From: Thermodesulfobacteriota bacterium
GTDB taxonomy: Bacteria; Desulfobacterota_D; UBA1144; Nemesobacterales; Mycalebacteriaceae
Assembly: GCA_965205855.1 (NCBI GenBank)
Contig: OZ242184.1
Location: forward strand, 224,001-288,000
Direction: 5' to 3'
Length of the DNA: 64,000 nt
In this document: positions 3,076-41,122 of the stretch, piece by piece
Layout: every line of letters begins with the position of its first letter
Numbering within the stretch: position 1 is the stretch's first letter
The notes under the pieces: model-generated
What the model was told of the DNA's origin: nothing
The model's database searches: none
Seen by the model: only the letters and a program-made list of their open reading frames with translations
Made by a program: the position numbers and the translations under genes

Positions 3076-4257
3076 ATGACATCTCTTGACTGGCTTGACA
3101 GAGAGATTTCCCTTATACATGAGAAAGGGCTTTTCCGTGAGCTTACCGAACTTGAGACCGGACAGACTCCAGAGGTCTCCATTGACGGCAGAAAATACAT
3201 TCTTCTTGGGTCAAACGGGTATCTGGGTCTTTCCACGCACCCGGAAGTAAAAAAAGCCGCCGCCGCCGCTCTTGAGAAATACGGCGCGGGCAGCGGTGGT
3301 TCGCGTCTTGTCAGCGGGACGACGGACCTTCACTCCGAACTTGAGGAAAAAATCGCGACTTTCAAAAAAACCGAGTCGGCGATTGTTTTCAGTTCGGGGT
3401 ATCTTGCAAACATCGGCGCGATTCAGGCTCTTGCCGGTCCGGGCGATGTGGTTTTCAGCGATGAGCTTAACCACGCTTCAATAATAGACGGATGCAGAAT
3501 TTCCGGAGCCACAGTGAAAATCTACCGGCATCTGGATTTCAATCATCTGGAATCTCTTGCTCGCGGGCACCGGAGCGGTGGCGGAAAACTGATAGTCACC
3601 GACACGGTTTTCAGCATGGACGGAGACCTTGCCGACCTTTCCGCCATCTGCGGTATTGCCGAGACGCACGGTTGCATGGTTATGGCCGATGAGGCGCACG
3701 CGACCGGAGTTCTCGGAAAGCGCGGTAGCGGGGCAACCGAGTATTTCGGCGTTGAAAAAAATGTTGCAGTGGCCATGGGAACACTTTCGAAAGCCGTTGG
3801 TTCGGCGGGCGGATACATCGCCGGAGACAAGAGACTTATTGAGTTTTTAAGGAACAGGGCGAGGAGTTTTATCTTTGACACTTCACCTCCAGCCGCCGCG
3901 CTTGCCGCATCCGTTGAGGCGATTGGAATAATAGAGCGGGATACGGGCAGACGCGAGCATCTTTGGGATATGATAGGGGTTTTTAAAGCCGGTCTTGAAA
4001 AAACGGGGCTTGCGCTTTTGCCCTCCCGGTCCGCCATAGTTCCAGTTCTTATCGGAGAGCCGGACGAGGCGGTTAATTTCGCGTCCGCTCTGAGGGAAAA
4101 CGGTGTCTATACACCAGCCGTCAGACCGCCGTCCGTCCCGCCCGGAAAGTGCAGGGTAAGGGCTTCAATAATGGCGACACATGAAAAAGCGCACATTGAG
4201 CGCGCGGTCGTAGCTTTTGAAAAAGCCTCACGCTCGGTTTGGACCGGAAGCGGTTAA
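3076..4257 (+). CDS. bioF: 8-amino-7-oxononanoate synthase
   Basis: SNGYLGL, GSGGSRLVSG, SGYLAN, DELNHASIIDG, FSMDGD, DEAHATG, GTLSKA, RPPSVP. Confidence 0.94.
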   Translation: MTSLDWLDREISLIHEKGLFRELTELETGQTPEVSIDGRKYILLGSNGYLGLSTHPEVKKAAAAALEKYGAGSGGSRLVSGTTDLHSELEEKIATFKKTESAIVFSSGYLANIGAIQALAGPGDVVFSDELNHASIIDGCRISGATVKIYRHLDFNHLESLARGHRSGGGKLIVTDTVFSMDGDLADLSAICGIAETHGCMVMADEAHATGVLGKRGSGATEYFGVEKNVAVAMGTLSKAVGSAGGYIAGDKRLIEFLRNRARSFIFDTSPPAAALAASVEAIGIIERDTGRREHLWDMIGVFKAGLEKTGLALLPSRSAIVPVLIGEPDEAVNFASALRENGVYTPAVRPPSVPPGKCRVRASIMATHEKAHIERAVVAFEKASRSVWTGSG

Positions 4258-31752: not shown

Positions 31753-33861
31753 TCAACCCTTTTTTTTAGAGATTTTAAGAGATGCCACAAACTCTGCGGC
31801 TCCAACCGGAAGACCGCAGGAGCCGTTTTTACATACATAAACCGTTGCTTCGCCGTTTCTCCGCACGCATTCTTTTGCAAATGGCGCGATTACATCAATG
31901 GCCTTGTCGCCCGGTCGTTTGAGCAGCACCGTCCCGCCCGGCTCGTAGTTTTCCGCAAGCGCGTCCGTTACCGTCCTGATTTCATCGTTGTCGTTGCTTC
32001 CGGCGATTACAATCTCAACCGTTTCGCCTGCGGCGGCCTCCAGCGCGGCGAGCAGCATTGTGTGCGAAGACGGAATTTTTTCAACCGACAGCGAATATGA
32101 ACGCGCGGTTTTAAGAGCAATGTCTTCGTATTTCGCATTTCCCGTGATTGCGGAGATTTTCATAAGGTTCATAACCGCGACTGAGTTTCCGCATGGCACC
32201 GCACCGTCGTGAAACTCTTTTTTCCTGACTATCAACTCCTCGCAATCCTTTCGGGTGAAGAAAAAACCGCCTTTTTCGGGGTCTGAAAACAGCCGAATCA
32301 TTTCCTCATTGAGAGACAGAGCGGTTTCAAGCCGTGAGGTTTCAAACCCCGCTTCATAAAGCTCAAGAAGCCCCCATATTGTGAAAACGTAATCGTCCAG
32401 ATGTCCGTCGATTGATGCTTCGCCTTGCCGGAATCTGTGGAGAAGCCCACGCCCGCCGGTCATTTTTTCCGTTATAAAGTCCGCCGCATCCCGCGCCGCG
32501 AGCAGGTATTGGTCTTTCCTGAAAGCGCGCGCGGCTTTGGAAAACGCGGCTATCATCAGACCGTTCCAATCCGCAAGTATTTTGTCGTCCTTGTAAGGCC
32601 TCGGCCGTTTTTCTCTGTGTGCGAAAAGTTTTTTCCGCACCGATTCCAGATATTGCGCCGCTTGTTTTTCCGTTATGCCGAACTGTCCGGCAAGTTCCGG
32701 AATATCCCTTGCCCTGTGGGGGATGTTGGTTCCGGGCATTTTGCCCGAGGCTTCGTCCGTAAAGTTCCCGCCGCTTGAGATTCCGAGCGCTTGTGCCGCC
32801 AAACGCGCCTCGTCGCCGCCGCTGCCGCCGAGTGCGCTGTTGAAGTCCCCCTCGCTCCAGACATAGAATTTCCCCTCCTCCCCTTCGCTGTCCGCATCTT
32901 CGGCGGAAAAAAACGCTCCTTCGCCGGTCATGTCCCTCATCACATATTCCAGAATTTTTTCCGCCCCGTCCCGGTAGATGTTTTTCCCTGTTGCCAGCCA
33001 CACTTCGGTTAGCGCCAGAGAGATGAGCGCCTGGTCGTGGAGCATTTTCTCAAAGTGCGGAACAAGCCAGCGGCGGTCGGTGGAATACCTGTGAAATCCG
33101 CCGCCGATATGGTCGTTTATGCCTCCCTTAATCATCGCGCCGAGGGTTTTTTCCGCCATCTCAAGGGCTTTTGGCTCTCCGGTTCTTTTCCAGTGCCGTA
33201 TGAGAAAAATCAGATTGTGGGGCGTGGGAAATTTCGGAGAATTACCGAATCCTCCGAATGTCGGGTCAAAATTGCCGGCAAGTTGTACAAAGCCGTTCCT
33301 CAGCCATTTCCCCGTATCCGTTTCCCCTTCGGACTGCATGACCTCCTGCGCGTTTCTGATTGCCAGGGTTATTTCCGTTGCGGATTTCTCAATATCCTTT
33401 CTTCTGTCGTGCCACACTCCGCTTATCCGCGGTATGAGATCAACCATTCCCGCCCTGCCGAATTTGTTGTGTTTAGGTATATACGTGGCGGCAAAGAAGG
33501 GTTTTTTACGGGGGGTCATAACGACATTCAGCGGCCATCCGCAATTTCCCTCGGAAACTATCTGGCATACGCTCATGAGAACGCCGTCTATGTCGGGCCT
33601 TTCTTCCCTGTCAACTTTTATTGATACGAAAGCGTTATTCATAAGAGCCGCGACTTCGGTGTTTTCAAATGACTCTTTTTCCATTACATGACACCAGTGG
33701 CAGGTTGAGTATCCGACGGAGACAAAAACGGGTTTGTCTTCACGCGCCGCTTTTTCAAACGCTTCATCGCACCAGGGATACCAGTCCACGGGGTTGGCGG
33801 CGTGCTGTAGAAGATACGGGCTTTTTTCTTTGGAGAGTCTGTTTGTATACTTTTCCGGCAT
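31753..33861 (-). CDS. Thioredoxin-domain protein YyaL/SSP411 (DUF255)
   Basis: [64 protein letters not shown]. Confidence 0.93.
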
Positions 33862-33972
33862 GGTGAAAAAATACCCGTCATTTCTTCGCTGTTCCATTGT
33901 TGCTATGGACTGCTACGGGGCGGACAGTTTATATTGAAGGAAAGTTTGCCGCGTATATAAAGACGAGTTTCC

Positions 33973-35190: not shown

Positions 35191-36135
35191 TTATCTTTTC
35201 CCTGTCTCAAGGCACGTCTTTATCGTTCGCGCGAGGTTTTCCATCATTTCAAAATACAGTCCGGTTCCGGGCTCGATGCCGACTCCGATGGGGTCAAGAG
35301 GAACGATTTTTGCATCCGTTCCCTCAACTGCAGCCAGCACAAGTTTGTCTTTAAACTGCGGCTCGCTGAAAACGCAACCGGCTCTGGATTTGCGTATTCT
35401 TGCCCTGATTTCTTTGAGAGTCCGCGCCGACTGAGACATTGCGGGACTTGTGGTTATTGAGCCTACGATGTTCAGTCCGTAGTCGCGCTCAAAATAACCG
35501 TAGGCATCATGGAAAACGGCCAGGGGAGCGTTTTCCATTCCCGCAAATTCCCGTTCGAATTTTTCGTCAAGAGTTCTCAGTTTTTTTATGGTATTACGCG
35601 CATTTGTGTTGTAGGCGTTTTTGTTTTGCGGACTGATTTGGGACATCTGTTTTGTTACGTTTCTTACAATTTTCTCCGCATTTCTGAGTGAAAGCCAGAT
35701 ATGCAGATTGTACTTTCCGTGGTCGTGTTCGTCCGATTCCCAGCTTCCGCCCCGTCTTGATTTCTCAAGACGGATGCCCGAACCGGACGCGACGGAGAAT
35801 TTGCGGATTTTCTCCGGAAGCAAGCGCAGAGCGCCTGTGATAAAAGACTCAAAATTCTCGTCTATGTAGAACACGGCCTTTGCGCCGTACATCTCTTTTA
35901 TATGAGACGGTCTCAGGTCGAAATCATGAGGCGATTTGTTCGCCGGAACAATTAAAACCGTTTTATCGACGCCTTGCGTTACTCCCGCGACAAGTGAATG
36001 TAGCGGCGCTATGGTTACGGCAATCGCACCGGACTGCCGTGCGTATGCTTTATATGTAAGAATTGCTGTGAAAAACCCAATCGCAATCGGGACAATTAAA
36101 ATTCCAAGGATTGTTTTTATCCTGTTGTCTGTCAT
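35191..36135 (-). CDS. znuA: Zinc ABC transporter substrate-binding protein
   Basis: TIAPLHSLV, SPHDFDLRPS, HDHGKYNLHIWL, VFHDAYGYFE, CVFSEPQF, LDPIG. Confidence 0.92.
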   Translation of the reverse strand: MTDNRIKTILGILIVPIAIGFFTAILTYKAYARQSGAIAVTIAPLHSLVAGVTQGVDKTVLIVPANKSPHDFDLRPSHIKEMYGAKAVFYIDENFESFITGALRLLPEKIRKFSVASGSGIRLEKSRRGGSWESDEHDHGKYNLHIWLSLRNAEKIVRNVTKQMSQISPQNKNAYNTNARNTIKKLRTLDEKFEREFAGMENAPLAVFHDAYGYFERDYGLNIVGSITTSPAMSQSARTLKEIRARIRKSRAGCVFSEPQFKDKLVLAAVEGTDAKIVPLDPIGVGIEPGTGLYFEMMENLARTIKTCLETGKR

Positions 36136-36141
36136 AATGTA

Positions 36142-36158
36142 ATGTTATAATATAACAT
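36142..36158. promoter_or_regulatory. Zur box
   Basis: Perfect ATGTTATA-a-TATAACAT palindrome matching the proteobacterial Zur consensus, between divergent znuA and zur. Confidence 0.85.
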
Positions 36159-36187
36159 AAATGGGAGTCAAATCCTCAATTTTGAAT

Positions 36188-36640
36188 ATGAAAAACAGCA
36201 AAGACCGCGGCGGATGCGTTAACAAGACTATTATCATTGTAAAGAAAATATGCGCCGAAAGGGGAATTCGTCTTACGCCCTCAAGAATGCGCGTTATGGA
36301 TATGATTTTGCGTAGTCGCCAGCCGGTAAAGGCGTATGCCATATTGAAGTCTTTTTCCGACTCTTCCGCGCCGCCGACTGTTTACCGGGCTCTGAATTTT
36401 CTAATAGAGAACGGGTTTGTCCACAAAATCGCGAGCTCCTCTTCGTATGTCGCGTGTATTCATCCCGAAAGCCGGCATCCGGAGTGTTTTTTTCTCCTAT
36501 GTTCGGTTTGTGGTAACACAAAGGAATTTTGCGGCGGACTGTCCAAAACCATTGTGGAGGCGATTGGACACGAAGGTTTCGGCAAGGAAAAAATTGTTCT
36601 GGAAGTGCATGGAGTCTGCGCCGGATGCGGCGGAGTTTAG
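36188..36640 (+). CDS. zur: Zinc uptake regulator (Fur family)
   Basis: RLTPSR, KAYAIL, PPTVYRALNFL, VHKI, CSVC and CAGC. Confidence 0.9.
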   Translation: MKNSKDRGGCVNKTIIIVKKICAERGIRLTPSRMRVMDMILRSRQPVKAYAILKSFSDSSAPPTVYRALNFLIENGFVHKIASSSSYVACIHPESRHPECFFLLCSVCGNTKEFCGGLSKTIVEAIGHEGFGKEKIVLEVHGVCAGCGGV

Positions 36641-36642
36641 AT

Positions 36643-37395
36643 ATGGAAACACTTTTAAAAACACACCGTGTTTGTTTTGCGCGGCACGGGGTTGAGATAC
36701 TACGGGATATTTCACTTGAGGTGAAAAAGGGGGACTTCTTGTCCGTTGTGGGTCCCAACGGCGCCGGAAAGACAACGCTGTTAAAAATTCTCACCGGTAT
36801 CTTGCGGCCCGATTCCGGTTCGTGCGAACGCGGTTCGGGGTTGAAGATTGGCTATATGCCTCAGAGGCTTGAAGGAGACGGGGTTATGCCCATTTCGGCG
36901 AAGCGGTTTATAAGCCTTTGCTACGATAAAAACGGGACGGATTTTGATTCGGTCTGCCGGGAGACTGGTGTTTCCAGTGTTCTGGACAGGCCGCTTTACA
37001 ATCTTTCCGGAGGAGAGATGCAGCGCGTCATGCTTGCAAGGGCGCTTATGAACAATCCCGACCTTCTTGTGCTGGATGAGCCCGCCCAGAACCTTGATGT
37101 TTCGGGACAGTTGCATTTTTACAAAGCGCTTCAGGAAATTCACCTCAGGCGCGGTATCGCCATCCTGATGGTTTCCCATGACCTTCACATGGTTATGTCT
37201 TCCACAAAAACGGTTATCTGTCTTTATGTTCATGTCTGTTGCGCGGGCAAGCCGACAACGGTCGTGAAAGATCCTGAATTTATCGCCATCTTAGGCGAGG
37301 AAATGGCGCGACTGATGTCCGTTTATCCTCATTCCCATGACCATGAGCACGCCGGTTCCCATACCGAACCCGCCGTGCGGGAGAACAATGCCTGA
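36643..37395 (+). CDS. znuC: Zinc ABC transporter ATPase
   Basis: GPNGAGKT, LSGGEMQR, LDEP, VSHDLHMVM, HVCC, His-rich tail. Confidence 0.93.
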   Translation: METLLKTHRVCFARHGVEILRDISLEVKKGDFLSVVGPNGAGKTTLLKILTGILRPDSGSCERGSGLKIGYMPQRLEGDGVMPISAKRFISLCYDKNGTDFDSVCRETGVSSVLDRPLYNLSGGEMQRVMLARALMNNPDLLVLDEPAQNLDVSGQLHFYKALQEIHLRRGIAILMVSHDLHMVMSSTKTVICLYVHVCCAGKPTTVVKDPEFIAILGEEMARLMSVYPHSHDHEHAGSHTEPAVRENNA

Positions 37396-38209
37396 ACCTT
37401 TCATACTTCGCGCCTTGGTTGCGGGGGTCGGTGTTGCCATTGTCGCGGGGCTGCTTGGATGTTTTGTAATATGGAGGCGGATGGCTTATTTCGGCGACTC
37501 GCTTGCCCATGCCGCGCTTGCGGGTATTCCTCTCGGTATTCTTATGAAGATAGGAGAAGACTACGGGATTTTATTGGTTGCATCGGTTTTTTCCATTCTG
37601 CTTTTATACATCGGCGGCCACAGTCGTCTTTCCTCGGACGTGGTGCTGGGTATAATCGCGCACTCAACCCTCGCAATCGGAATAGTGGCGGTTTCTCTGA
37701 TCGATTTTTCGGTTTTCAACTTACATTCGGTTCTTTTCGGCGATATTTTAACTGTGGGCACTGCTGACATAGCGCGGATATACATCTGTGCGGCTGTTGT
37801 GATTGTCGTACTGGTATTGAAATGGGATTCTTTCCTGCTTGCTACAATCAACAGGGATTTGGCAAATGCCGAAGGCATCAACACATTCGGGATTAACCTG
37901 CTTCTTGTTTTTCTTATGGCGTTTGTTGTTTCAGTGTCTTTTCAGGTGGTTGGCGTTTTACTTATAACATCGGCCCTGATCATTCCGGCGGCGGCGGCGC
38001 GTATGATTGCCCGTTCGCCAGAATCAATGGCGGTTTTCTCCTGTGCCGTCGGCATGGTGTCCGTTATTGCGGGAATCTATCTTTCCCTTAATTTTGACAC
38101 TCCGTCGGGGCCTTCAATTATTTTGGCGTCAACCGCGCTTTTTGTTTTGTTTTTCACAGCTTCAATACTTTTTGAAAAAGTCTTTCGTAAAAAAAGAAAC
38201 ATTTTTTAA
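37388..38209 (+). CDS. znuB: Zinc ABC transporter permease
   Basis: WRRMAYFGDSLAHAAL, LFGDIL, DTPSGPSII. Confidence 0.93.
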   Translation: MPEPFILRALVAGVGVAIVAGLLGCFVIWRRMAYFGDSLAHAALAGIPLGILMKIGEDYGILLVASVFSILLLYIGGHSRLSSDVVLGIIAHSTLAIGIVAVSLIDFSVFNLHSVLFGDILTVGTADIARIYICAAVVIVVLVLKWDSFLLATINRDLANAEGINTFGINLLLVFLMAFVVSVSFQVVGVLLITSALIIPAAAARMIARSPESMAVFSCAVGMVSVIAGIYLSLNFDTPSGPSIILASTALFVLFFTASILFEKVFRKKRNIF

Positions 38210-38320
38210 TTTTTAACTATGAGAGATATTTTGACGCTTCCGGTTACGTTTTTCTTGTCGTCAACCCTTTTTGCTTTCCCCGTCCGGTGGTGGCGATGAA
38301 AGGCACGGCCATTGATTTCT

Positions 38321-38701
38321 TCAAATGAAGTATCCGACAAGAAACGCGAAAAAGAACCCAACAAGATACAATGCGACTGAAAACACCACAATCACAAGAC
38401 TAAATCTCCGCAGACGCATGCACATCCGCGCCGCCTCCGGCTCTGCGGGGCAGGGAGCGTTCCTCTGCGCATAACGTCCCCAAGCCGCGATTGCGAGCAT
38501 TATTCCCGCGACTGCGAAAACCCATGCCTTATGCTCCGAAAGCCACACAAGTTGCGGAAACGCGCTCACAAGCCCCGCCGTTACTGCTCCGAGACCAATG
38601 CTCACAAGCAGCGCGGGCAGAGCGCAGCAGACAAGAGTTCCCGCCGATGTAAAAAGTGAAAAAAACGGCAAGGTTGCGTCCTTCCAGCCGAAATTTTTCA
38701 T
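38321..38701 (-). CDS. MerT/MerC-like small metal-transport membrane protein
   Basis: TLVCCALPALLVSIGLGA (intramembrane CC), loop CP..C, 3-4 TM. Confidence 0.72.
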   Translation of the reverse strand: MKNFGWKDATLPFFSLFTSAGTLVCCALPALLVSIGLGAVTAGLVSAFPQLVWLSEHKAWVFAVAGIMLAIAAWGRYAQRNAPCPAEPEAARMCMRLRRFSLVIVVFSVALYLVGFFFAFLVGYFI

Positions 38702-39090
38702 TCTGCGTCTCCCGTTCTGTAGCGCGATATGGACACAACTTCATAGCCGGAATCGTTTATCAATTTCCTGATTTTTCCGTCTGGCAGATTTCCCCCCTTT
38801 TTGAGATAAACCGTAACAAATCCGCGCCTGAGATTGACATCCGTTTCCTCAACCACGTCGGTTTTGAGAAAAACCTTGTATATGGAGCGGGCGCAGAAAT
38901 CGCACACAAGCCCGTTGACACGGATGTGAACAATCTCTCCCGCAAGTATGGGTTCTCCCGCCTTTTCAGTGCGCGCGGGTGGCCTGTGGTCGTGTTCTCC
39001 GTATCTGTCATGACCCGCGTTTGCATTTCCGAACGCGATAAAAGCCGCAACCGTAAATATTAAAATTGCTGTTGTTAATTTCATTTTCAT
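38698..39090 (-). CDS. Periplasmic heavy-metal-associated (HMA/MerP-like) protein
   Basis: Signal peptide (ANA|G), His-rich linker GHDRYGEHDH, VNGLVCDFCA, DSGY; GGAGG RBS. Confidence 0.85.
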   Translation of the reverse strand: MKMKLTTAILIFTVAAFIAFGNANAGHDRYGEHDHRPPARTEKAGEPILAGEIVHIRVNGLVCDFCARSIYKVFLKTDVVEETDVNLRRGFVTVYLKKGGNLPDGKIRKLINDSGYEVVSISRYRTGDAE

Positions 39091-39102
39091 TCCTCCTTTT
39101 TA

Positions 39103-39747
39103 TTAAAACCGCCGGATAAAGTTTAGTAGAAAATTCCCCTTGCTTCCGTATCCGACCTCAAGAAGCGACGCGCCCTTGAAAAAGCGCACAAGCGGGGTTA
39201 TTTCCGTCTTGTTTGCACAATTCGCCGTTGGGCAATAAGTAATTTCCGTCATAATCCAGGTATGCAGAGAGCCGTAATCCGCCACATACGGAGCGATTCC
39301 AACTCTCCCCGACTGCCAGAACCGCTTGTCAAACCTTCCCAAACTCCGGGCGCGATTCTCATAGCGGACAAAAAACCTTCTGTTTTCCCAGTCCGCGGAT
39401 ATTCCCGCAAACACCGCGGGAGACAAATCGCCGTTTTTCAACGCCCCGCCGGCTGCGAGTTTGAGATACAAGTTTGCCTGCGAATGGCTCCGGTTGAGTC
39501 GTTTCAGCAGGGAGTTGAGCTGAAAAACCAGTCCTATGGTGTCACGTCCGCGCGCGTGAAATCCCCTCAGCCCGACCGAATGCCGCGCCGAGGGCGAATA
39601 ATGCAGATGAACAGATGTGTTCATCGCGTTATGCATCTGCATTACGGTCCACCCGCCCTTATGGGAAACGGGTCTCCCCCACGCGCCGTGAATCTGAGGC
39701 AGAAAAGCCGCCAATGTGAAAGCGCAAGCTACGCAAAGTTTTTTCAT
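39103..39747 (-). CDS. Exported hypothetical protein, probable outer-membrane beta-barrel
   Basis: Signal peptide, alternating amphipathic strands, terminal Phe (LLNFIRRF), Met/His near N-terminus. Confidence 0.6.
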   Translation of the reverse strand: MKKLCVACAFTLAAFLPQIHGAWGRPVSHKGGWTVMQMHNAMNTSVHLHYSPSARHSVGLRGFHARGRDTIGLVFQLNSLLKRLNRSHSQANLYLKLAAGGALKNGDLSPAVFAGISADWENRRFFVRYENRARSLGRFDKRFWQSGRVGIAPYVADYGSLHTWIMTEITYCPTANCANKTEITPLVRFFKGASLLEVGYGSKGNFLLNFIRRF

Positions 39748-39749
39748 TT

Positions 39750-39819
39750 TTCCTCCGCTTTGAGTTTTGAGTCTGGTGACAAAGCCGTCGTTTAACGACT
39801 TTGAAGTGAAAGCGGGGAA
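39750..39819 (-). promoter_or_regulatory. SD-sequestering intergenic hairpin
   Basis: mRNA UUCCCCGCUUU immediately after the leader stop pairs with AAAGCGGAGGAA (contains the SD); inner stems CAAAG/CUUUG and GUCG/CGAC. Confidence 0.6.
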
Positions 39820-40194
39820 TTAAACAAGGATGCGAAGGGTCAGCAGATAGATATGCAGTTCCGCCTGCCGGACGGCGCGGGACGGCAAAATCTTTTTCCG
39901 GTTTGCCACTCCGTTGAAAGCCGCCGGAAATTCCGTCCGCGCAAAGAGGACAGAGAGTTTTGAGCCGGCGCTTTCTTTTTTCACAACCGTCTGTTGAAAA
40001 TCAAGACAGTCTCCAAAAGCCGAGTGTTCGCAGTTTTCGTCCGGACTGTGGTCGGGGCAAACCCTTTTGTTTTCTGAATGGGATGCGTGAACCGCCGCGC
40101 TGTCCTGTTCCAGCATTGGACACGGGGCGGAGTTTGCCGCGGAGACGGCAAAGCCGAAAATTAAAACAAAAAATACAACGGCAACACGCAACAT
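39820..40194 (-). CDS. Secreted Cys/His-rich protein, putative metal-sensing leader
   Basis: Signal MLRVAVVFFVLIFGFAVSAANSA, CPM..H..H..CPDH..CEH..DC, hydrophobic C-terminus LHIYLLTLRILV. Confidence 0.6.
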   Translation of the reverse strand: MLRVAVVFFVLIFGFAVSAANSAPCPMLEQDSAAVHASHSENKRVCPDHSPDENCEHSAFGDCLDFQQTVVKKESAGSKLSVLFARTEFPAAFNGVANRKKILPSRAVRQAELHIYLLTLRILV

Positions 40195-40254
40195 AACGAA
40201 AGAAAACTATAGTTGAATCGGCGGACTGTCAAACCGCATTTGAGAGTTTGGAAG

Positions 40255-40321
<67 letters not shown>

Positions 40322-40331
<10 letters not shown>

Positions 40332-41122
40332 GGGTTTTCTTTCAATTCCGCCACTACCATTTTCATATCGTCCCAGAGAGGGCGTTTGTATTTTTCAAAC
40401 CTCAAAAGGGCGGCGGGGTGGTATGTTACCGCAAGTTTTATCCCTCCGTAGTTGTGAAACACGCCGCGTAAAGAACCGAGCGAAGGATTTTGAAGTTTCA
40501 AAAGCGCCTTTGCCGCCACAAGCCCCAGACACACTATAACCCGCGGAGAAACGGATTTTATCTGATTTACCAGAAACGGCTCGCATTCCGCCGCCTCATC
40601 CGCCTCGGGGTTCCGGTTTTCGGGCGGTCTGCATTTCACAACATTGCAGATATACACGTCTTCGCGTTTCATTCCCATCGCCTCTATTATCTTGTCCAGA
40701 AGTTTTCCGCCTCTTCCCACAAAAGGCCTTCCCTGCTCATCCTCGTCCCTACCCGGGCCTTCTCCGACAAAAACAAGCTCGGCTTTCGGGTTTCCTTCGC
40801 CGAAAACAATCGTTCTTCTTCCGGAATGAAGTTTGCATCTTTCGCAGTCGCCGAGTTCCTTTCTTATCTCTTCAAGACTTTTTTCGCCGCCGGATTCAAA
40901 AAGGTCTGAAAACTGGCTGACCGTAACGGCTGGGTTCGTCTTTTCCGTCTGCGGTATTTTTTGAGCAGCGGCTTCCTTTTGCTTCCCAGCCGCTTTGGCA
41001 CGCACGGGGGTTTGTGCGGTTTCTTTTTCAATCATAATTTTTCCGTTTCCCACACGCGCCTGAAATTCCAGATAGGCTTTTAGCTCGTTTATTACCGCTT
41101 TTACTTCGTCGTTTCCGTTCAT
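40322..41122 (-). CDS. Uracil-DNA glycosylase family 4
   Basis: CERCKL, VFGEG, VGEGPG..ED..GRPFVG, NVVKCRPP.NR.P, TYHPAALLR; ATG 41122. Confidence 0.93.

Follow-up and report, generated by a model that had tools for sequence, protein, structure and literature searches.

Four co-oriented genes and their conservation

Positions 38321-40194 of the window, a stretch of 64,000 nucleotides (nt) from a Thermodesulfobacteriota bacterium (GenBank assembly GCA_965205855.1, contig OZ242184.1, positions 224,001 to 288,000), carry on the minus strand four tightly packed, co-oriented open reading frames (ORFs), which were read together with their translations and are here termed P1, P2, P3 and P4 (Table 1). 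This array of four co-oriented genes in the order of the envelope layers had been proposed from the letters of the DNA alone (hereafter the sequence-only reading), and all ORFs were recovered with the positions, strand and anatomy described there. As it had also said, the operon converges on znuB, which lies on the plus strand, and none of merA, merR, a P-type ATPase gene or a TonB receptor gene was found adjoining the four genes. We consider the four genes to be one conserved cassette that would pass a thiophilic ion across the envelope by ligand exchange, the ion being most likely Cu(I).

Conservation was analyzed in a survey with one genome per species, in which 460 relatives of P2 were found and 80 loci were kept. 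The HMA gene (P3) lay directly after the barrel gene (P2) in 79 of the 80 loci, and a P4-type protein with a CC motif came next in 65; the arrangement is conserved far beyond chance. The loci came from Alphaproteobacteria, Bdellovibrionales, Gammaproteobacteria and the window's own class. At the 15 loci lacking P4, other genes stood in its place (12), the contig ended (2) or no ORF was present (1). Genes flanking the cassettes were mostly housekeeping genes. On one short contig (L078), two barrel-family ORFs were found (1517-2146 and 3576-3974), the second being shorter and possibly a duplicated or partial copy.

Table 1. Features of the cassette and its surroundings, with positions counted from the first letter of the window
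Feature	Position	Strand	Description	Basis
P1	39820-40194	minus	124 amino acids (aa), secreted Cys/His peptide	ORF and translation
P2	39103-39747	minus	214 aa, predicted 12-stranded outer-membrane β-barrel, unnamed family	ORF and AlphaFold2
P3	38698-39090	minus	130 aa, periplasmic HMA-type metal-binding protein, signal peptide	ORF and HMA match below cut-off
P4	38321-38701	minus	126 aa, three-helix inner-membrane protein, remote MerT homologue by profile comparison	ORF and hhalign
P1-P2 intergenic RNA	39748-39819	minus	predicted stem	fold
Promoter-like TTGACA-15 nt-TATAGT	40206-40232	minus	candidate only	read from sequence
tRNA-Arg(CCG)	40255-40331		upstream of operon	
znuB	37337-38209	plus	operon converges on it	Pfam ABC-3
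znuA	35191-36135	minus		
zur	36161-36640	plus		

Barrel, periplasmic HMA protein and MerT-like membrane protein

P2 begins with a signal-peptide-like stretch and ends in Phe, and its gene is preceded by a GGAGG Shine-Dalgarno sequence. Its AlphaFold2 model, based on an alignment of 32 relatives, comprises 12 strands, with a predicted local distance difference test score (pLDDT) of 90.6 and a predicted template modelling score (pTM) of 0.78. Foldseek matched the model to the β-domains of intimin and invasin and to KdgM, FapF and NanC (E values 3e-4 to 2e-3), which bears out the small barrel that the sequence-only reading had assigned to this ORF. In VIA, a structure search independent of Foldseek, BrkA came first (Z 18.2, root-mean-square deviation (rmsd) 2.2, 175 residues), the KdgM family reached Z 15.7-15.8 (VhGalP 15.8, KdgM 15.7) and NanC Z 13.3. 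PcoB (7pge_B) was considered as a possible special structural relative of P2; its match (Z 11.7; 164 residues, rmsd 4.2) ranked 15th, below the autotransporter and KdgM barrels, and was no better than that of generic 12-stranded barrels. At the sequence level, P2 matched no Pfam family at E<=1, so that membership of PcoB/CopB is not indicated by sequence; neither did it match any NCBIfam family, nor the KdgM and NanC families. P2 is thus modelled as a generic 12-stranded outer-membrane barrel that is not particularly close to any named family.

The barrel shares fold and size with the KdgM/NanC porins and the β-domains of autotransporters, yet differs from them in sequence (identity 5-13%, and 8-10% to KdgM and NanC), in a lumen with conserved His/Met/Trp together with Arg/Glu, and in having an HMA gene as partner. 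The conserved residues predicted to face the lumen include His47 (88%), His49 (97%) and His162, Trp164 and Met166 (100% each), accompanied by many Arg, Glu, Asn and Gln residues. The Met/His lining expected in the sequence-only reading is supported, with the orientation of the side chains taken from strand alternation alone and strand 32-39 unassigned. The family is large and unnamed: a word-indexed search gave 170 matches, all termed 'hypothetical', an exhaustive profile search gave 918 cluster representatives (50% identity) at E<=1e-3, and the 30 clusters nearest to P2 in the Protein Atlas were all unnamed and without a Pfam family.

Two distant relatives of P2, P0166 and P0189, are single ORFs of about 360 aa in which a MerR-type DNA-binding domain runs without a stop into the signal peptide of the barrel. 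The MerR-type domain carries C80, C115 and C125, a ZntR-like spacing. A true fusion of MerR and barrel seems topologically implausible, and an internal start or two overlapping genes in the same frame is more likely.

P3 combines a signal peptide with a His-rich linker, GHDRYGEHDHRPP, and an NGLVCDFCA loop; its second ATG, at 39084, is better spaced from the Shine-Dalgarno sequence than the first. It matched Pfam HMA (PF00403) over the whole 62-position profile with 20.6 bits (E 6e-4; 21.9 bits in the genome scan), under the cut-off of 24.8, and NCBIfam models of the CopZ type with 20-32 bits (E 1e-7 to 4e-4), under cut-offs of 62-112. In the alignment of 35 family sequences, the G-[LM]-V-C-D-F-C-A loop, a metal-binding loop of the GMxCxxC type at the start of the domain, is invariant.

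A complex of P2 and P3 was predicted from the two mature proteins, both given as alignments. The interaction prediction scores from aligned errors (ipSAE) were 0.78, 0.78 and 0.79, versus 0.00 for the best of three controls; 58 of 80 solved complexes and 2 of 110 mismatched pairs attained that mark. The runs shared at least 91% of their contacts, and the pLDDT of the partner was at least 72. In the predicted interface, residues 58-70 of P3, which include C63-D-F-C66, lie against the termini and short turns of the barrel, that is, its periplasmic mouth, with residues 25-32, 53-54, 83-90, 121-123, 155-162 (including the invariant H162), 190-195 and 211-213 on the side of P2. Among the contacts predicted are those of N85, Q90, E121, R123 and H162 of P2 with residues 58-66 of P3. 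These predictions support a docking of the metal loop of P3 on the periplasmic mouth of P2.

P4 carries C25-C26 in its first hydrophobic helix and C84 and C94 in a positively charged, Arg-rich loop before helix 3, and all four cysteines are invariant in its family. The model (pLDDT 70) has helices at 7-41, 50-56, 58-79 and 88-125, three of them long. When 39 relatives of P4 were compared by hhalign with 13 true MerT sequences taken from loci found with PF02411, the two families aligned over 111 columns with a probability of 96.7% (E 3.6e-10), CC falling on CC and the loop cysteines being aligned. P4 itself gave no match to Pfam MerT (PF02411) at E<=1, the gathering cut-off being 32.9 bits; sub-threshold matches were present in 10 of the 39 relatives (best E 1.2e-4), and the MerT half of the fusion model NF033556 (MerTP) was matched weakly (E 2e-4). 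Judged by these profiles, P4 is a distant relative of MerT, and the small transmembrane protein with an intramembrane CC and a loop Cys pair of the sequence-only reading holds in all these respects.

In the mer system, MerP is a periplasmic scavenger and MerT a three-span importer (PMC3466566). The cassette resembles this pair in that a periplasmic CxxC protein of the HMA type is encoded beside a three-helix inner-membrane protein with CC in helix 1 and a Cys pair before helix 3. Unlike MerT/MerP (PF02411 and PF00403), it is not linked to merA or merR, its P3 and P4 fall under the Pfam cut-offs, the loop cysteines of P4 are spaced by 9 residues instead of the 5 in the MerT alignment, and it has an invariant CDFC loop, together with a leader peptide and an outer-membrane barrel of its own.

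These likenesses, namely the relation of P4 to MerT and the MerP-like location and motif of P3, would also suit a remnant or variant of the mer uptake module, an explanation that is largely refuted. A MerA/Lpd-like ORF was found in none of the 80 cassette loci versus 12 of 20 true MerT loci, the latter even with flanks of only 1.5 kb, in line with the lack of merA/merR linkage claimed from the window alone. A search of the window's genome for merA, which the same reading had suggested, likewise gave no MerA above the cut-off: the best candidate was rejected as dihydrolipoyl dehydrogenase (Lpd; 332.8 bits versus a cut-off of 454), which has a CLNWGC motif and lacks a C-terminal CC. PF02411 had no match in the genome, and the threshold of Pfam MerT was not reached by P4. 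Further, the cassette, including a barrel and a leader specific to it, is kept together across phyla.

The Cys pairs of P4, placed on opposite sides of the membrane, could alternatively serve a thiol-disulfide electron relay that passes reducing power to a periplasmic CxxC protein, as do CcdA or DsbD. Downstream of the 79 called cassettes, the 127 ORFs included CsoR-family (8), MauE-type (6), ArsP-type permease (5), glutaredoxin-domain (5), DUF305 (3) and RND pump (1) genes, and in one locus read the MauE and glutaredoxin domains were fused; the MauE-type and glutaredoxin-domain ORFs would fit such a relay. We regard it as highly improbable, given that P4 is homologous to MerT, that P3 has an HMA loop rather than a thioredoxin fold, and that a redox relay leaves no role for the barrel on which P3 is modelled to dock.

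Upstream peptide, control region and zinc genes

P1 has a hydrophobic N-terminus, as read from its sequence, followed by APC, CPDH and C..C motifs, and belongs to no Pfam or NCBIfam family. Homologues in the same genus share 35% and 34% identity with it, and only the closest relative among the 80 loci has a direct P1 homologue. A small Cys-rich ORF with a signal peptide was present 30-100 nt upstream of the barrel gene in 57 of the 80 loci, and P1 can be aligned with such upstream peptides at its Cys/His columns. In 51 loci, two consecutive prolines (PP) occur within the last 15 residues of the upstream peptide, typically as ..SPPxRPPKxxS.

These features were compared with those of CutF-like nascent-peptide sensors, for which PMC9973294 gives as filters fewer than 150 aa, a signal peptide, a Cys/His motif, a gene on the same strand less than 1000 nt downstream, and PP within the last 15 residues; further context on such sensors is found in bioRxiv 2025.02.05.636593. 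The upstream peptides of the 51 loci fit these rules (about <150 aa, signal peptide, Cys/His, PP, and a gene 30-100 nt on) and in these features resemble peptides of the CutF, CruR and CopL type, so that the label 'leader', given to P1 in the sequence-only reading, is apt with regard to its counterparts. P1 itself agrees with the rules in size (124 aa), N-terminal signal (the hydrophobic stretch), Cys/His motif and same-strand gene less than 1000 nt downstream. It would thus be a diverged counterpart of the CutF-like leaders of related loci that has lost the polyproline motif.

Two findings weigh against the leader link. The window's P1 ends in RQAELHIYLLTLRILV (..LTLRILV), without PP, and membership of the leaders in DUF2946 (PF11162) was not supported (hhalign probability 0.56% against 20 true members), which leaves the link rule-based. 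In Pfam searches, P1 gave no DUF2946 match and 8 of 36 upstream peptides gave sub-threshold matches (best E 0.0028). Unlike the CutF-like (DUF2946) peptides, then, the leaders show no profile homology, carry RPPK instead of RAPP, and lack a general shielding of the Shine-Dalgarno sequence. The two other P1 copies in the genus are also devoid of PP and have a conserved ..ILV tail instead, whereas three other families of the window's class keep RPPK or RPPIV, with the PP feature in 8 of 8 of their loci. At locus L094, from another genome of the same genus (G032), there is no leader ORF and the barrel gene directly adjoins a gene for uracil-DNA glycosylase, which suggests that the genus is losing the leader by decay.

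In the gap of 72 nt between P1 and P2, a predicted stem pairs UUCCCCGCUUU, which directly follows the stop codon of P1, with the Shine-Dalgarno sequence GCGGAGG of P2 around an inner hairpin. The fold of 39735-39870 had a minimum free energy of -35.2 kcal/mol and a z of -3.16, and 1 of 200 shuffles was as stable. Shielding of the Shine-Dalgarno sequence as a family-wide mechanism was rejected in a survey of 50 related loci (L072 being left out): mean pairing was 0.51 versus 0.66 with shuffled upstream sequence, and a complementary sequence lay next to the leader stop in 10 of the 50. The intergenic regions were nevertheless more structured than shuffles, with a median z of -1.57 and 21 of 50 below -2.

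Some loci deviate from this arrangement at the leader position. In L023 (5548-5961) and L065 (5604-5903), the leader is replaced by another HMA protein, whose signal is lipoprotein-like and whose loop reads GMTCEPC; P4 is missing from both loci and a CsoR-family gene follows. In L066 (2924-4524) and L073 (69-1582), the leader is immediately preceded by MbnB/DUF692-type and DUF2063 genes. The MbnB/DUF692 and DUF2063 pair is associated in the literature with copper-binding ribosomal peptides.

With regard to transcription, the TATAGT of the promoter-like element ends 12 nt ahead of the ATG of P1, and this element, read from the letters only, would yield a nearly leaderless mRNA. A consensus promoter scan that required a spacer of 16-18 nt reported none within 38100-40400, and read-through into the operon from the tRNA-Arg gene is a possible alternative. 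Within the operon, the ATG of P4 overlaps the stop codon of P3 (ATGA). Farther upstream lie the genes for uracil-DNA glycosylase and leuS, and the downstream neighbourhood is the znuA / zur-znuC-znuB cluster. A few kb from these zinc and metal genes, an ORF at 31753-33897 on the minus strand encodes a protein of 714 aa whose N-terminal domain is thioredoxin-like (DUF255/DsbH, E 4e-73).

The zinc cluster bears on the choice of metal, as the substrate might be divalent, thiophilic Zn(II) or Cd(II), with the cassette functionally tied to its zinc neighbours. In two families of the class, znuA-zur-znuCB lies next to the cassette, though arranged differently; ZrgA and CDF genes (two ORFs each) occur among the 113 ORFs upstream of the cassettes, along with MbnB (2) and DUF2063 (2); P3 has its His-rich linker and an invariant Asp inside CDFC; and the MerR-type read-through proteins have a ZntR-like Cys spacing. 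Such a substrate is nonetheless quite unlikely. Adjoining znu genes were found in 1 of the 80 survey loci and in none of the loci of the families f7 and f4 in the class survey. A perfect palindromic Zur box, TGTTATAATATAACA, lies at 36143-36157 within the 25-nt gap of the divergent znuA and zur genes, and none was present in the cassette upstream regions of the window and 10 related loci, the boxes being confined to znuA/zur intergenic regions. The chemistry of CC and Cys pair, the Cys-rich leader and the C-H-C type of CsoR favour Cu(I) instead. The same Zur box occurs at the equivalent place in the related genomes L088 and L092, with a near-match in L001 and L089.

Metal, direction and physiological role

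The window's genome comprises 1.40 Mb in one contig (98% complete) and encodes subunit I of cytochrome oxidase (COX1). No P-type ATPase of any kind was found in it (control 14/14), and Sco, PCuAC, Cox11 and CsoR were likewise not found. Apart from P3, the genome gave no HMA-like match and therefore has no CopZ, and its single MerR-family protein has no Cys, which excludes a metal-sensing MerR. With the oxidase present and no other copper genes, the cassette would be the only recognisable copper-handling equipment, and copper supply its most likely job.

On these grounds, our preferred reading is an inward relay of a thiophilic ion that serves copper supply or handling in this genome, a tentative proposal to which we give a probability of roughly 0.45. 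Cu(I) is the leading candidate because of the chemistry of CC and Cys pair, the Cys-rich CutF-like leaders, the C-H-C type of CsoR and the copper need of a genome without other handling genes. The CsoR-like protein of L023 has Cys48, His73 and Cys77, the spacing of the Cu(I) type. Net flow is taken as inward because of the analogy with MerP/MerT and because no energy-coupling part is present. The ion would enter the narrow 12-stranded channel of P2, lined with conserved His/Met/Trp and charged residues; P3 would dock its CDFC loop on the periplasmic mouth of the barrel, the ion would then be exchanged between P3 and the helix-1 CC pair of P4, and the Cys pair of the cytoplasmic loop of P4 would release it inside. 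In most carriers, the Cys-rich polyproline leader probably couples periplasmic metal to downstream expression in a CutF-like manner; since the polyproline is lost in the window's genus, control there may be constitutive or different. We infer the metal, the direction, the physiological purpose and the mechanism of the leader from these data.

The arrangement resembles PcoB/PcoC/PcoD (CopB/CopC/CopD), in which the outer membrane likewise holds a barrel, the periplasm a metal chaperone and the inner membrane a small protein, and in which the direction of flow is disputed: PcoB is an importer in PMC9210255 and an efflux channel in PMC12509749. No sequence relation to Pco was found, the chaperone of the cassette is of the HMA and not the CopC type, its carrier is MerT-like instead of CopD-like, and there is no multicopper oxidase. 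Among the titles listed, literature searches found no paper on this cassette, the supplement lists of PMC9973294, in which the leader cluster and its neighbour may already figure, lying outside the search; the text of that paper makes no mention of HMA, MerT, mercury, porin or beta-barrel.

Several findings weigh against the relay. The invariant Asp in CDFC is unusual for Cu(I) sites and, by comparison with ZntA-type loops, would fit divalent ions. The docking of P3 on P2 expresses model confidence and is not to be taken as a measurement. Other genes stand in the place of P4 in 12 of the 80 loci, and the inner-membrane step is therefore not obligatory. With regard to direction, 8 of the 79 called-cassette loci have a CsoR-family gene immediately downstream in the same orientation and a MerR-type domain leads into the two distant barrels P0166 and P0189, both being sensors of metal excess, and the lack of a Zur box before the cassette means that no deficiency regulator was seen. 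Import of Cu(I) also looks hazardous without an exporter, and none was recognised in the genome. The nutrient-metal importer, with Cu as the most plausible metal, that the sequence-only reading had put forward thus stays unproven.

The distribution in the class adds a further point of this kind. Among 120 genomes of the window's class, the barrel was present in 43 and a P-type ATPase in 53, with 42 genomes having the barrel only, 52 the ATPase only, one both and 25 neither. COX1 was present in 117 of the 120, so that at most 3 are without cytochrome oxidase. A requirement of the cassette for cytochrome oxidase, considered as a candidate, was rejected on these counts, COX1 being far more common than the barrel and 25 genomes having neither barrel nor ATPase. 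A general replacement of P-type ATPases by the cassette was rejected as well: it is seen only inside the class and fails in 7 of 8 proteobacterial cassette carriers tested, which have a P-type ATPase. Because the complementarity of barrel and ATPase follows few families, tracks genome size and fails outside the class, it is suggestive and not a test. Loss of all P-type ATPases is shared by whole families of the class.

These regulators and this distribution could instead reflect a device against metal excess, induced by copper (in some lineages by Zn or Cd), that clears the periplasm: P3 would scavenge the ion and either vent it through P2 down the Cu(I) gradient or pass it through P4 to a cytoplasmic buffer, much as is debated for PcoB, PcoC and PcoD. 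The CsoR-family repressor genes and the two barrels read through from MerR-type proteins with C80, C115 and C125 speak for it, as do stress-type flanks in few loci (downstream, DUF305 in three ORFs and RND in one; upstream, MbnB, DUF2063 and CDF in two each). According to PMC9973294, CutF upregulates a detoxifying oxidase in response to rising copper, and most Cys-rich CutF-like peptides precede copper-efflux genes. The near mutual exclusion with P-type ATPases in the class would fit a substitute for a CopA-based defence. We hold such a device to be possible, on the unlikely side: regulators stand at only about one tenth of the loci, the complementarity is limited to a few related families and confounded with genome size, and it breaks down among the proteobacterial carriers. 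Further, a passive thiol relay is unable to pump up a gradient, MerT-type carriers are importers, and the window's genome has no sensor, polyproline motif or cytoplasmic sink.

A more far-reaching version would be an energy-free copper economy for small genomes. A Cu(I) channel would feed a docked HMA chaperone that metallates the oxidase, replacing Sco, PCuAC and Cox11, and Cu(I) would equilibrate through the MerT-like carrier, replacing CopA and CopZ, the whole being tuned by a metal-sensing nascent peptide. This version is speculative, and we rate it as rather unlikely; if true, it would define a new and widespread class of metal uptake and homeostasis in which neither TonB nor ATP is needed.

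The passage of copper across the outer membrane, and its delivery to enzymes without the textbook machinery, are poorly understood. The cassette is common: besides the window's class, its carriers comprise Gammaproteobacteria, predatory bacteria and Alphaproteobacteria from marine and host-associated settings, with Hyphomonas and Henriciella as cultivable examples, and its parts are all annotated as hypothetical or fall below family cut-offs. It offers a testable pair of small channel and chaperone, a relative of MerT that is not part of mercury resistance and a new set of polyproline leaders, and lineages devoid of any P-type ATPase that yet keep cytochrome oxidase provide a natural experiment. 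If its direction and metal were settled, many genomes could be annotated.

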